The notes below the pieces were generated by a model that made no database searches, had not been told where the DNA came from, and saw nothing but the letters and a program-made list of their open reading frames with translations. Position numbers and translations under genes: made by a program. This document shows, in pieces, positions 29,394-34,933 of a stretch of DNA of 64,000 nucleotides; the first letter of the stretch is position 1, and each line of letters starts with the position of its first letter. This DNA is from a phage: sequence record PZ386957.1. One strand, 5' to 3'.

Positions 29394-30830
29394 TTACTTT
29401 GTCAACTCTTTTTCAAAAGATTTTACGATATACATGATGGTGCTCAATTCGGACGGTGCTACTGTCTCTGTGTAGCCATCCGGCATATCTTCTTTTGAGA
29501 TATAGGAAGTTTTACCTTTCATCGCTTCCTTGATTTTGTTCTCTAAGTCTAAGATCTTTTGTCCGTCTTGTAAAGTCAATTCATAAAAGATCTCGTGGTC
29601 GAACTTAGAAACGCGAGATTGTTGTCTCATCCTTTTGACCGCATCTTTATTTGTAATTCCAAATTTAACACCAACAAAAGAATTTTTGTATATTAATTTT
29701 TGTACATATAAACACCCACTTATAACAGTAGAATAACCAGATTTTGCGCAATTTGGACACCTGTGCCCATGAGAGACAAACTTATTATATGTGCTTTGAT
29801 ATAAGTGGTTATTTGGACACATGAATTCGATTTTCGTCTTCATCACCCCAATATATTTTCCACCAACAAACCTCAAAAATTTATGTTCTTTTGCAACAGA
29901 TTTTATTTCATCAACTACTGCTTCTTCTGTTTTTAAAGTCACCCCTTGACAAATCGCACATTTACTTCCTTTGATTAAAGAAGAAAATGACACAATATAA
30001 TCATGACCTTTTTCACATCTCATATTAAGTTTTGTTGTTACACCTTTATATTTTCCGCCAACAAAACCCAAAAAAGTATAAGACCCTTTTTTCTTGATGA
30101 TTTCTTTTATCGCTTCATTTTCGTTTCGACGAATTCCACCATAGCAAAACTCGCAGCGACATTTTTTGATGACGTTGGATACTTTTCTGTTATAGATGTG
30201 ACCTTCTTTACACATTAAAGATACTAATAAATCGGATGTAACCTTATCTTTATTGTTTTCTACACACAATACTGTATCATTCGTCGAAGTTGCCAATCGA
30301 TTTAATAATTCTTTTTCTTGTATTCTTTTTTCCTTACCGATTTTATTGTAGAAGCATTTAGCACATTTACGTCCACTTATATATGAAATATATGACGTTT
30401 CATATATATGTCCTCGGTCACACATAACACGAAGTTTCGTTTTTGTAGATCCTATATATTTTCCACCAACAAATTCAATAAATTTATAGTCGGTTCTTTT
30501 ATCTATGTTATTTCTAGCTTTATGTTCACTAATAGGATTCCTGTTTGAATTCGCGCATCGCAAGCATCTTTTTCCTTGAGATAAAGATGTTATTGTCGTT
30601 TCGTATAAGTGTCCATTTGAGCACGTTAATGAAATTTTAGTTTTACTACCCTTCCAATCATCAATAAACCCGTTAAACGTATAATTGTTATCTTCGCACA
30701 TTTTAATGATCATTTGTTCATATTCTTTCGGTGATTTAGCCAGCCCATGCAGCTTTTTTACTTGTGCGTCTTTATAAAAATAAGTTTTCATCATTTTATC
30801 CTCCGTTGTTTCGATGTGTGTATTATACAT
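29394..30830 (-). CDS. five tandem Cys4 zinc-ribbon repeats plus C-terminal T5orf172/GIY-YIG-like domain protein
   Basis: Five repeats of ~FxGGKYxGxxTK...CxxGHxY...GxxCxxC, then GCLYVQKL...VGVKFGITNKDAVKR...DGYTETV. Confidence 0.5.
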   Translation of the reverse strand: MYNTHIETTEDKMMKTYFYKDAQVKKLHGLAKSPKEYEQMIIKMCEDNNYTFNGFIDDWKGSKTKISLTCSNGHLYETTITSLSQGKRCLRCANSNRNPISEHKARNNIDKRTDYKFIEFVGGKYIGSTKTKLRVMCDRGHIYETSYISYISGRKCAKCFYNKIGKEKRIQEKELLNRLATSTNDTVLCVENNKDKVTSDLLVSLMCKEGHIYNRKVSNVIKKCRCEFCYGGIRRNENEAIKEIIKKKGSYTFLGFVGGKYKGVTTKLNMRCEKGHDYIVSFSSLIKGSKCAICQGVTLKTEEAVVDEIKSVAKEHKFLRFVGGKYIGVMKTKIEFMCPNNHLYQSTYNKFVSHGHRCPNCAKSGYSTVISGCLYVQKLIYKNSFVGVKFGITNKDAVKRMRQQSRVSKFDHEIFYELTLQDGQKILDLENKIKEAMKGKTSYISKEDMPDGYTETVAPSELSTIMYIVKSFEKELTK

Positions 30831-30910: not shown

Positions 30911-31879
30911 TTAAAGATTCAGGAGAGAATCAAGATCATCAAGATCAGAAGCGGAAGAAGTACCGCCACTCAGGTCCAGAGATGCCATCAGATCATCAGC
31001 GGAAGAATCTGACGCCGTGCTAGCTGCGGTAATACCAGAATCGAATGCATTTAAAGCAGCGTCAAAATCATCAAGCTGGCTGTTAATAGCTGCCGCAGCA
31101 CCAGAAGCCGAAGCACCAGCTACCAGACTTACACCTTTAACTTTCTTAAATTTAGCATCCAGTTCCTCAAAAGATTTAAACTGGTCTTTTGCTACGATAA
31201 CATCAATATCTACCATGTTTTCGAACAGATATTTCTGGAATGCTTCATCTTCGATGTTCGGAATCGCTGATTGCTGCATGAAACGTGAATCATCGTAGTT
31301 CAGGAATTTATCTACTTTCTTAGCTTTCAGAAGGAAGTTAGCGCCTTCGAACGGACATACGATGTTTACAGGTTTTTCGCCCAATTCCGTGTTTACGTTG
31401 CTCATTGCCAGAATCTTGTCATAAATTTTCTTACCGAAGCGGAATTTAAATACTTTACCTTCGTTTTCCGGCGCTTTCGGATCTTTCATTACCAGAATGT
31501 TTGCGAAGTAAGAAGATTTACGCTTAACATCTTGATATTCTTTATTGTTGGTGTTGTACAGGTCATTTTCGCTAATGTATTTGCACACAGGGCAAGAATC
31601 AAAATCACCGTGGGTGCTAGGGCAGTTTTCCCAATAATACTTACCATTTACTTTGAAAGAATGGTTTACAAGGTTGATGATCGGTAAACCGTCTTCGGTG
31701 CGTGCTGGAAGAAAACGAATCACCGCTTCACCGTTACCCGCCGCGTCAGTTTTAATCTTCCACTCTTTCGGATCTTCTTTGGAGAAGCCGTTGCTACCTT
31801 TCAGTGCTGCCAGTTGAGCTTGCAGTTTGGAAGAATCTTGACGACGAAAAATGTTCATAATTATACCTCTTTTATACAT
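30911..31879 (-). CDS. 32: single-stranded DNA-binding protein gp32
   Basis: Zn-binding region [27 protein letters not shown]; acidic Ser/Asp-rich C-terminus; 322 aa. Confidence 0.85.
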
Positions 31880-32614: not shown

Positions 32615-32884
32615 TTAAATATCGAGAGTGTTGGTCGGTTCGTCGATCACTCCCTTCCTGAGCGTTCTATTTACTATACATTCTTGTGTGATCTTGTCAA
32701 TAATGGACACCGGAATATATTTCTGATAGTGACCATATTCTATAGAGTTTTCCTCTACAAACTGCGTTGTTGCTTCAAGATAAGTCAATCCCTCTTCAAC
32801 AACCAGTTTTTCGATTGCAAGACCGTTTGCTGTTTTGTTCGCGGCTTTTACCGCATGTTCATTAAGCATTGAACACCCGATCAT
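32615..32884 (-). CDS. 33: putative late transcription co-activator gp33 (positional)
   Basis: 89 aa ORF between dsbA and 59, as in T4; no diagnostic motif. Confidence 0.35.
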   Translation of the reverse strand: MIGCSMLNEHAVKAANKTANGLAIEKLVVEEGLTYLEATTQFVEENSIEYGHYQKYIPVSIIDKITQECIVNRTLRKGVIDEPTNTLDI

Positions 32885-33137
32885 AGAGTTCTACCGCCTC
32901 GTCGCGTTCTTCTTCGAATTGTTCGCGCTGCTGCTGGTGATACAGCTTAAACAGGATACCCCACATTTTACCGTCTACGCCCAATTCTTCTTTGGCGCGT
33001 TTCTTGATTTCCTTGATCTTATCGCCGTAGGCTTCTTGAATGGTTTTCTGATCGCTGGCTTCTTTAATCAGTTGTGCCAGGGTATTGCCGTGAATAGACT
33101 CGTCGAATACTACTTTATCTGCTTTTTGTTCAGTCAT
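32862..33137 (-). CDS. dsbA: dsDNA-binding protein DsbA (positional)
   Basis: 91 aa, helical and charged; position matches T4 dsbA. Confidence 0.45.
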   Translation of the reverse strand: MTEQKADKVVFDESIHGNTLAQLIKEASDQKTIQEAYGDKIKEIKKRAKEELGVDGKMWGILFKLYHQQQREQFEEERDEAVELYDRVFNA

Positions 33138-33141
33138 AATA

Positions 33142-33744
33142 TTAACCCTCTTTACTAATTAATTGAAAACCACGTTCAGCTTTAGAAATCGTGCTAGGTT
33201 GTAAATCAGCGTTCACATATTCTAGCATCATTTCTCTGATAATGTCAAGTGCTTTTTCGTCACCTGATTTTAATTCGAACTCAAGTTCATAATGAGTATT
33301 AACAGCATCGAATTCACCATATACATCTCCATAGTAGAAATTGTCTTTGCACATTTCTACTATACCATATCCAACATCAAGTGTAAACACCCTGCGATTT
33401 GTCATTACTTGCAATCGCGGTAAAACATTATTGGAGTTTATGTCTAGACCATCAACAAACTTATCAAAATCAGAAAATGTTGAAAATGTAATTTCTTCTC
33501 GGTTGAATAACCCAGATTCACTACCACCAAACTTGACCATGATCAATTCTTTTTCAACGTCAAGTCGTGCGTAAATTCCTTTACGTCGTAGTGCTAGGTC
33601 ATCGGTGTCATAATAAAATTCGTTTTTGGTGTAGGCATTTCTGCTTACAATATGATAACCATCACACATTGCTACCCACGCATCTAATATAGAATCTTCA
33701 CCATCACATGAGCTTGCGTAGTATTTTAATTCAAGTTCTTTCAT
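33142..33744 (-). CDS. CYTH-like (triphosphate tunnel metalloenzyme / class IV adenylyl cyclase-like) domain protein
   Basis: N-terminal ExExK-type strand MKELELKYY, C-terminal YELEFELK, ~200 aa, consistent with a CYTH fold; an extra gene between rnh and dsbA relative to T4. Confidence 0.45.
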   Translation of the reverse strand: MKELELKYYASSCDGEDSILDAWVAMCDGYHIVSRNAYTKNEFYYDTDDLALRRKGIYARLDVEKELIMVKFGGSESGLFNREEITFSTFSDFDKFVDGLDINSNNVLPRLQVMTNRRVFTLDVGYGIVEMCKDNFYYGDVYGEFDAVNTHYELEFELKSGDEKALDIIREMMLEYVNADLQPSTISKAERGFQLISKEG

Positions 33745-33754
33745 ATGTCAACCC

Positions 33755-34702
33755 TTAGAATTCCCCTATTTTCTGCAACATTTTAACTAACGCATTTGTT
33801 ACAAAATAGTTATAAATTTTACCGCGTGGTGCTGGTTTAGATTTTTCCCATGACTCCAGAATCTGATTCTGGATATTGTCTGGGATCTCGTCAAAGTCAA
33901 TCAACTGACGGTTTTCATCAAATCGGCGTGCTTCTTCCTCTGTCATCAAAGACTTAGGATCTTCGGCATCGAAAATTTGCTCTAACCATTTGGTCGCAAC
34001 TGGTTTAGCTCGTTCACCTTCCAATCGAGAGATAATAAAATCACTACGGCACTTGACAGAAGCTACACCGTCTTTTGCGTCACCCTTAACACATTTTACC
34101 ATAAGGTCTTTGTACGGGCTACCATATTTGCATTTCTTCCATGCTTTTTGTACTGGTGCCCACTGCTTCACATTTTTGTATTTGTGTAACTGAGTGTAGT
34201 CACCGTCGCCGGAGTTAATAAGAACTTGACGTCCTTCAATAGAAAACTTTTTAGTTAATACAGCGATTATATCATCAGCTTCAACTTTGTCAACCTTAAT
34301 AACGTGATAAGGCATGTTTTCTTTAAACTCTTCGGTGATCTTATTGATCGCAGCAAAGATCATATCCCAATCACGCGGATCTGCGTCTCGCTTTTCCTTA
34401 CGGTTGCGCTTGTAATAAGGTGCAATATCGCGTCGCCAGTAACCTTTGCTCGAATCAAATGCAAGTACCGTAATCGGGTATTGCTCTTTGAATTTTGTCA
34501 TATTATAACGCATGGTGTCAAGGATAAGATGACGGATCATGCCTTCACTAATAGGATCTTCCGGTTTAAAGGTATGCGAGATAGTAGCAATCATAAGCTG
34601 TGACATATCAATCAAATGCACACCTTCCGGCAGTTTATCTTCTGGATCATCAAAAAAATCATTAAGTGTAGCGGTAGTTTTTGTAAACGGGTTATACGTC
34701 AT
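33755..34702 (-). CDS. rnh: RNase H / 5'-3' flap exonuclease
   Basis: 315 aa (T4 RNase H 305 aa); FEN-like acidic clusters; located upstream of the 34 region. Confidence 0.75.
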   Translation of the reverse strand: MTYNPFTKTTATLNDFFDDPEDKLPEGVHLIDMSQLMIATISHTFKPEDPISEGMIRHLILDTMRYNMTKFKEQYPITVLAFDSSKGYWRRDIAPYYKRNRKEKRDADPRDWDMIFAAINKITEEFKENMPYHVIKVDKVEADDIIAVLTKKFSIEGRQVLINSGDGDYTQLHKYKNVKQWAPVQKAWKKCKYGSPYKDLMVKCVKGDAKDGVASVKCRSDFIISRLEGERAKPVATKWLEQIFDAEDPKSLMTEEEARRFDENRQLIDFDEIPDNIQNQILESWEKSKPAPRGKIYNYFVTNALVKMLQKIGEF

Positions 34703-34704
34703 AA

Positions 34705-34890
34705 TTAAGTTCTCTCCACTCTCACAACAACATATTCGCCAAACGAGCTAGATACTTCACGGTCATATCCGTACTTCTCCATAACTCGCAGAATTGCATT
34801 GTTTAATTCAGCACGAAAATAATTGTAATCCTTATCGGGGATTCTGTCAACTATCCATTTTGCACCATCTGACAAATCAACTTTAACCAT
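34705..34890 (-). CDS. hypothetical small protein
   Basis: 61 aa ORF. Confidence 0.3.
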   Translation of the reverse strand: MVKVDLSDGAKWIVDRIPDKDYNYFRAELNNAILRVMEKYGYDREVSSSFGEYVVVRVERT

Positions 34891-34925: not shown

Positions 34926-34933
34926 TATAAATA
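34926..34933 (+). promoter_or_regulatory. T4-type late promoter (TATAAATA) for gene 34
   Basis: tttTATAAATAat about 30 nt upstream of the gp34 start. Confidence 0.6.

Follow-up and report, generated by a model that had tools for sequence, protein, structure and literature searches.

What is a gene for a putative triphosphate-hydrolysing tunnel enzyme doing among the replication genes of a T4-like phage? In the 64,000-nucleotide stretch of phage DNA analysed here (sequence record PZ386957.1; hereafter the window), an open reading frame (ORF) of unassigned function lies between rnh and dsbA. A first-pass annotation, made from the letters alone, had pointed out that these two genes adjoin in T4 and had placed the ORF in the CYTH family of triphosphate tunnel metalloenzymes (TTMs). 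Both claims hold: in the T4 genome only 8 nt, and no gene, separate dsbA from rnh, the two strands quoted as family hallmarks are present (ELELKY at residues 3–8 and YELEFELK at residues 152–159), and the family call is supported by profile, profile–profile and fold evidence. On these grounds the gene product is a predicted stand-alone TTM that falls, within the CYTH superfamily, on the YgiF branch; it is devoid of a CHAD domain and closed by a C-terminal plug helix. Its default role is probably triphosphate housekeeping during replication.

Assignment to the YgiF branch

The search with the CYTH profile and the prediction of an eight-stranded tunnel, both proposed with the first-pass annotation, gave concordant answers. 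The protein scores 33.3 bits against Pfam CYTH (PF01928; gathering score 23.2, E=5.5e-8). The AlphaFold2 model (mean predicted local distance difference test, pLDDT, 88.6; predicted TM score, pTM, 0.83) consists of eight long strands forming an antiparallel tunnel, followed by a C-terminal helix. Its top Foldseek match in the PDB is E. coli YgiF (5A60; E=8e-11, TM 0.73), and among PDB sequences the clade profile matches YgiF alone, end to end over the tunnel domain. Single-sequence phmmer against the PDB sequences yielded nothing meaningful, and an NCBIfam scan of the protein gave no match. Comparison by hhalign of the phage clade with 146 cellular homologs gave a probability of 99.9% (E=3.6e-34). 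In an exhaustive profile search of 1.84 billion representatives, E≤1e-30 is reached by three clusters only, which together make up the clade; outside it, ~200-residue CYTH and ~500-residue CYTH–CHAD-like proteins form a long tail with E values from 1e-15 to 1e-4. Invariant residues recur with i/i+2 periodicity on every strand, giving the charged tunnel lining typical of the fold, and E3, E5, R60, K71, R82, E84, R117, E130, D134, E155 and E157 fall on columns at least 95% conserved in the 146 distant homologs.

YgiF is an inorganic triphosphatase of CYTH–CHAD architecture (PDB 5A60/5A61), in which the tunnel domain spans residues 1–200 and the polyphosphate-binding CHAD domain begins at residue 221 (PMC4641920). 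The phage protein is 21–22% identical to it and ends at residue 200, where the YgiF tunnel domain ends, and therefore has no CHAD domain. The nearest relatives outside the clade come from scattered archaeal and Bacilli metagenome-assembled genomes (MAGs). Recent capture of a host ygiF was considered and is ruled out by the low identity together with the provenance of these relatives. One metagenomic protein related to a Bacilli MAG (P0049, 462 residues; E=7e-10 to the clade profile) carries a CYTH domain fused to a C-terminal P-loop kinase/ATPase-like domain with a Walker A motif GTPRAGKTT, a fusion that hints at nucleotide-linked roles in some relatives.

Active site and predicted chemistry

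The following residues of a two-metal TTM are invariant among 17–44 clade members: the full acidic patch (E3, E5, E155 and E157), the catalytic arginine R60, a ladder of basic residues (K7, K71, R82 and R117) and the plug-helix residues K188 and R191. Conservation extends far beyond phages. Among the 146 distant homologs, glutamate is found at E3 and E5 in 142 each, at E153 in 136, at E155 in 145 and at E157 in all; lysine occupies K7 in 144 and K188 in every sequence, and R191 is kept in 130. Martinez et al. 2015 (PMC4641920) described how YgiF works: of the two metals that hold inorganic triphosphate (PPPi), metal 1 sits on E160, and metal 2 is bound by E4, E6 and E162 and activates the water that attacks; the enzyme cannot do without R56. 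Mutation of residues of the E4/E6/R56/E160/E162 type kills the activity of YgiF or of AtTTM3 (PMC4641920).

By analogy, the phage enzyme would act as YgiF, AtTTM3 and thiamine triphosphatase (ThTPase) do. One metal would dock the triphosphate on E155, and a second, held by E3, E5 and E157, would activate a water molecule attacking the terminal phosphate. The expected products are phosphate and a diphosphate, with no cyclic nucleotide.

This expectation agrees with motif comparisons against the class IV adenylyl cyclases, which share the fold. Three motifs are diagnostic of these enzymes: HFxxxxExExK on the first strand, ExA on strand β8 (hydrolases have ExE), and replacement of the first arginine of an RxR pair by a small residue, C, V or L (Vogt et al. 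2021, PMC8233210). The first is impossible in the phage protein because only two residues, M1 and K2, precede the ExExK motif. On β8 the phage has E155-F-E157. As to the third, R60 is retained in the alignments by MAFFT, by hhalign and by combined profile; a HMMER-only register would place a tyrosine there, which leaves slight doubt. That register, which would mean a catalytic arginine replaced by tyrosine, is rejected by MAFFT (155 sequences), by hhalign, by the combined profile against YgiF and by the gapless +16 spacing from the invariant Y44. Set beside CyaB and YpAC-IV (PDB 2FJT and 3N0Y), the phage protein is thus without an HF motif, carries ExE in place of ExA and retains the first arginine. 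A two-metal phosphohydrolase is the favoured assignment on these motifs, and the label 'adenylate cyclase' is unsupported. Among the functions listed in the first-pass annotation, triphosphate hydrolysis is accordingly the one that gains, and the making of second messengers is disfavoured, with two of the three cyclase motifs clearly absent and the third absent under the favoured alignment.

The tunnel departs from that of YgiF in several respects. The RxR pair of the YgiF type is reduced to a single arginine in either alignment register: its second arginine, present in 142 of the 146 distant homologs, is aspartate in the phage, and this D62 is invariant in Krischvirus-type members (asparagine in the outlier P0045). 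The small residue preceding the catalytic arginine by two positions, which is A, S, G, T or V in 136 of the 146 and aromatic in none, is the tyrosine Y58, near-invariant in the clade. K40 stands in place of leucine or another non-basic residue, no lysine or arginine being among the six commonest residues of the column, and F136 replaces a glycine found in 111 of 146. An aromatic residue two positions before the catalytic arginine marks thiamine triphosphatases, where Trp-53 stacks the thiazole ring by the plug helix (Vogt et al., PMC8233210). Relative to their W/YxRxR signature, the aromatic residue is present as Y58 and the second arginine is replaced by D62; the mammalian 25-kDa ThTPase (PDB 3BHD and 5A64) is 14–16% identical to the phage protein, whose YxRxD motif does without the second arginine that binds the γ-phosphate in that enzyme. 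Since Y58 occupies the thiamine-stacking position, the substrate may differ from plain triphosphate, and the motif suggests that the phage enzyme may prefer an organic triphosphate over PPPi. With its tunnel rebuilt (RxR to Y-x-R-x-D, leucine to K40, glycine to F136), its substrate preference would be expected to depart from the PPPi of YgiF; the most likely substrate would be an organic triphosphate with its ring stacked on Y58 near the plug helix, as thiamine is on Trp-53 of ThTPase. Such a preference would also suit a host like E. coli, whose pyrophosphatase provides abundant PPPase activity; PPPi, moreover, is barely detectable in cells (PMC3440374).

A hypervariable cassette in a conserved backbone

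Variation in the gene is sharply bounded. Sliding nucleotide identity falls from 93–100% to 45–75% between about 33715 and 33290 (codons ~10–150) and then recovers. In protein terms, the window and phage RB49 are 98% identical in rnh, 69% in CYTH, 92% in dsbA, 100% in gp33 and 94% in gp59; for RB49 and Skers the values are 98% in rnh, 59% in CYTH and 99% in dsbA, and the window rnh is 97–98% identical to those of RB49, Phi1 and Skers. Identity in the cassette lies anywhere between 32 and 100% for 42 clade sequences, giving seven groups at the 80% level; over the last 50 residues of the protein the median is 96%. Among 5.8 billion protein clusters, no other allele exceeds 61% identity to the cassette of the window, which sits in a backbone conserved at 92–100%.

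Synonymous divergence (dS) in the cassette runs from 0.43 to beyond saturation, against 0.02–0.4 in the flanks; codons 151–200 of RB49, Phi1 and Skers, with dS of 0–0.11, are as low as the flanks. The pairwise ratio of nonsynonymous to synonymous divergence (dN/dS) in the cassette is about 0.3–0.4. Such low ratios with dS near saturation point to old alleles plus recombination. Positive selection was considered as the source of the divergence and none is demonstrable, dN/dS being 0.27–0.38 where dS is near or beyond saturation. On the cassette strands, tunnel-facing positions are better conserved than outward-facing ones (0.88 versus 0.76, p=2e-4). Taken together, the alleles look like ancient versions of a functional enzyme that are exchanged between phages by recombination in the conserved flanks; the surface is free to vary and the tunnel stays constant.

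Other genes of the neighbourhood vary too. The window gp32 (30911–31879, minus strand) is 77–79% and dsbA 92% identical to their counterparts in RB49, Phi1 and Skers, which are 97–100% identical to each other; gp33, gp59 and rnh are 94–100% identical to those of the same three phages. Divergent gp32 and dsbA among conserved genes thus mark the window phage as mosaic relative to known Krischvirus genomes.

Distribution and earlier annotations

The 2.4 kb around the gene match 59 GenBank phage records at 88–89% nucleotide identity, among them RB49, Phi1 and Skers (Krischvirus by record taxonomy) and JSE, GEC-3S and ECD7. The window itself comes from a Krischvirus (RB49-like) phage. All 59 of these Krischvirus-type records have a CYTH homolog at the same position, between rnh and dsbA. 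The orthologs, typified by RB49ORF244c (PHROG 14893), are 55–69% identical to the window protein. Most records call the product a 'hypothetical protein'; 'adenylate cyclase' appears in three (KMB43, PHB13 and AV108) and 'inorganic triphosphatase' in two. The GenBank note of RB49ORF244c (AY343333, 2003) already recorded similarity to ygiF, Nolan et al. 2006 (PMC1524935) listed it as 'CYTH domain, 0.0026', and PHROGs files the family as phrog_14893 in the category of unknown function. The CYTH/YgiF-like call is therefore correct and about 20 years old, made in RB49, and the window gene adds a divergent allele to a phage subfamily already known within a known enzyme superfamily. New here are the motif tests against cyclase function, the clade-specific YxRxD/K40/F136 variant of the tunnel and the sharply bounded hypervariable cassette.

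More distant members come from metagenomes. A word-indexed homolog search reached the tight phage clade only, and a pattern-based locus scan of IMG/VR returned at least two loci. In three metagenomic contigs the CYTH gene lies directly upstream of dsbA–gp33, and in one of them rnh also lies upstream. Where measured, the CYTH proteins of these contigs are 38–46% identical to that of the window; in the two contigs compared with the window, dsbA is 69–73% and gp33 74–80% identical. Searches by tblastn with the metagenomic intermediates P0044 and P0045 retrieved no further cultured phages. The gene had been described at first as inserted. This is right relative to T4; in the Krischvirus lineage it is an old fixed resident, lying upstream of dsbA–gp33 even at 38–46% CYTH identity.

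Genomic neighbourhood and expression

Coordinates of the gene, its motifs and its immediate neighbours are collected in Table 1. The stop codon of rnh is followed after 10 nt by the CYTH start, preceded by a Shine–Dalgarno-like AAGGG, and the CYTH stop is separated from dsbA by 4 nt. Downstream of dsbA come the genes for gp33, gp59 and gp32, all on the same strand as the CYTH gene. Spacing between rnh and CYTH is 10–11 nt in the window and in the distant contig L008, and the same gene order is found in RB49, Phi1 and Skers. The genes around it in RB49 form the usual block of T4-type phages (nrdAB, td, frd, 32, 59, 33, dsbA, rnh, then tail fibre genes), which offers no obvious metabolic partner of the CYTH gene. 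With a GC content of 0.35, the CYTH gene is slightly more AT-rich than rnh (0.40) and dsbA (0.45).

Table 1. Positions in the window of the CYTH gene, its functional motifs and adjoining features
Feature	Position	Strand	Remarks
CYTH/TTM gene, ortholog of RB49ORF244c	33142..33744	-	200 codons, ATG start
rnh, upstream neighbour (T4-type RNase H / 5'-3' exonuclease)	33755..34702	-	Pfam RNaseH_C 2.4e-38, 5_3_exonuc_N 7.7e-18
dsbA, downstream neighbour (late-transcription dsDNA-binding protein)	32862..33137	-	Pfam Phage_DsbA 1.6e-20
rnh/CYTH junction AAGGGTTGACAT, ribosome-binding site and conserved TTGACA	33745..33754	-	10 nt; kept in RB49, Phi1, Skers, L007, L008
ExExK strand E3-L-E5-L-K7, predicted metal site 2 glutamates and Lys	33724..33738	-	invariant in clade; aligns to YgiF E4/E6/K8
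Y58-A-R60-L-D62, clade variant of RxR	33559..33573	-	R60 aligns to YgiF R56 (MAFFT, hhalign, combined profile)
E153-L-E155-F-E157-L-K159 strand, predicted ExE metal-binding motif (E155 metal site 1, E157 metal site 2)	33268..33288	-	invariant; aligns to YgiF E158/E160/E162
S187-K-A-E-R191-G, C-terminal plug helix motif	33169..33186	-	model helix 188-196; matches YgiF LSKAARGYHL
Hypervariable cassette, codons 10-150	33295..33717	-	nucleotide identity, dS, allele groups
Sigma-70-like site TTGACA-18-TG-TAGAAT inside CYTH 3' end, upstream of dsbA	33219..33248	-	consensus match only

The sole strong terminator-like hairpin on the coding strand follows gene 32, which makes co-expression with the replication and late-transcription genes likely; the CYTH gene is probably made together with rnh, dsbA, 33, 59 and 32. 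The coding strand carries an excess of sigma-70-like sites (24 against 12.3 ± 3.4 expected). The site in the 3' end of the CYTH gene is kept in RB49 and Phi1, weakened in Skers and absent in L008. At 33723–33751 (minus strand), the TTGACA of the junction and a TAAAAT spanning the Leu-Lys-Tyr codons of the ExExK strand form an 11/12 sigma-70 match, which would start transcription inside the CYTH ORF; this TTGACA is kept in the window, RB49, Phi1, Skers and the distant contigs L007 and L008. A perfect TTGACA-16-TG-TATAAT inside rnh (34266–34293, minus strand), kept even in L008, overlaps the codons of the conserved KVDKVEADDII. Because they coincide with conserved coding motifs, the strongest of these sites are not independent evidence of promoters. 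The late-promoter motif TATAAATA does not occur on the coding strand near the CYTH gene. A T4-type copy of TATAAATA lies at 34926–34933 (plus strand), ~30 nt upstream of gene 34, and is kept in RB49 and Skers.

Further features of the region are side observations. Between gene 34 and rnh, a 61-residue ORF (34705–34890, minus strand; PHROG 3594), 93–95% identical to its RB49, Phi1 and Skers homologs, occupies a place where T4 has no gene. Just downstream of gene 32, a 478-residue ORF (29394–30830, minus strand), homologous to RB49ORF239c and without T4 equivalent at the spot, contains four CapR homology domains (PF21817, E=3.5e-25) with CxxC pairs resembling treble-clef zinc fingers, and a distinct C-terminal segment of ~110 residues. 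Rfam and tRNA scans gave nothing above threshold; a sub-threshold group I intron match at 34242–34433 (minus strand; 24.5 bits versus a gathering score of 50, E=0.004) lies inside the uninterrupted rnh ORF and is probably due to chance.

What the enzyme may do

The likely job of a YgiF-branch hydrolase at this place would be nucleotide or phosphate housekeeping during replication, as its gene forms a tight tandem array with rnh, dsbA, 33, 59 and 32, on the strand of replication and late-transcription genes. Several points weigh against this reading. The housekeeping role itself is inferred from gene position only. A plain inorganic triphosphatase would seem redundant because E. coli pyrophosphatase already supplies ample activity of this kind (PMC3440374). 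An arginine nearly universal in distant homologs has become an invariant aspartate in the clade; the equivalent loss in AtTTM3 (R54A) leaves that enzyme active (PMC4641920). The HMMER alignment to YgiF alone runs two residues out of register with the others and would put a tyrosine on the catalytic arginine. Some plant TTMs with hydrolase-type motifs are reported to have weak moonlighting cyclase activity. Literature searches on phage CYTH/TTM function, on a YgiF–phage link and on Krischvirus-specific studies found no functional work.

The best-placed rival keeps the hydrolysis and changes its target. It is tempting to propose a counter-defence or host-manipulation enzyme of new specificity, whose Y-x-R-x-D/K40/F136 tunnel would destroy a triphosphate signal or toxic nucleotide of the host, and whose recombining hypervariable surface cassette would bear the marks of an arms race with some host factor able to recognize or inhibit it; we regard this as unlikely. 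Candidate targets are dITP and ITP (the deoxy- and ribonucleoside triphosphates of inosine; Kongming and RADAR systems), pppGpp, thiamine and adenosine-thiamine triphosphate in starving E. coli, and PPPi from defensive dNTP triphosphohydrolases. Triphosphate-bearing immune signals do exist, such as the dITP of Kongming, and dGTPase defences are reported to release PPPi. The clade-specific tunnel changes suggest a substrate other than PPPi, and a cassette with at least seven allele groups in a 92–100% conserved backbone is a pattern common in conflict genes. Yet the window phage is mosaic in general, its gp32 being another divergent allele; overall dN/dS stays below 1, and the gene sits within the replication block, not among small early accessory genes. 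A PADLOC scan gave no match and a literature search found no link between CYTH/TTM proteins and counter-defence; the known anti-Kongming factor, T5 Dmp, is a 5'-monophosphatase and belongs to another enzyme class.

Adjacency to rnh raises the question of an RNA 5'-triphosphatase with Cet1-like chemistry, acting alongside RNase H on the triphosphorylated ends of Okazaki primers or transcripts. Cet1/mimivirus-type RNA triphosphatases, the only well-studied viral TTMs, have the tunnel fold and the two glutamate-rich strands in common with the phage protein, and the junction with rnh is tight and immediate where spacing was determined. Such a role is nevertheless improbable: neighbouring position says little about shared function in T4-like genomes, T4 removes its primers without such an enzyme, similarity to RNA triphosphatases is much weaker, and the closed plug helix with conserved K188 and R191 is typical of TTMs acting on small molecules.

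Production of cyclic AMP or another cyclic nucleotide in the infected cell, as a class IV adenylyl (nucleotidyl) cyclase would do, deserves very little credence. It has in its favour the common fold and the three records annotated as 'adenylate cyclase'; the motif comparisons speak against it, and the naming history of the family is known to have produced such labels as artefacts (PMC3440374). Least credible of all is a degrader of canonical dNTPs, serving cytosine modification in some Krischvirus phages as dCTPase serves T4: CYTH and MazG triphosphatases of jumbo phages have been suggested to degrade unmodified NTPs (Iyer et al., PMC7824862) and the cytosine-modification pathway of Krischvirus, which lacks the T4-type hydroxymethylase and glucosyltransferases, is not yet known, but TTMs strip only the terminal phosphate, which does not keep a nucleotide out of DNA, and the link is unlikely because SAP, with fully modified cytosines, and TB34, with none, are 99.96% identical (PMC13390438) and both carry the gene, equally similar to the window protein.

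Significance for T4-like phages

The gene is a fixed component of an entire genus of T4-like coliphages, whose members are widely isolated for use in phage therapy, and it also occurs in deeper uncultured relatives. Literature searching found no characterised CYTH/TTM enzyme from a bacteriophage. The label 'adenylate cyclase' is probably mistaken in the records that use it; the defensible name is triphosphate tunnel metalloenzyme (YgiF-like phosphohydrolase). An altered tunnel motif together with a variable cassette offers a concrete and cheap experimental handle. If the enzyme serves PPPi or NTP housekeeping, the gene is an ordinary one; if its substrate were a host signal, it would be the first counter-defence enzyme with a TTM fold and would bring a new class of enzyme into the counter-defence repertoire of phages.
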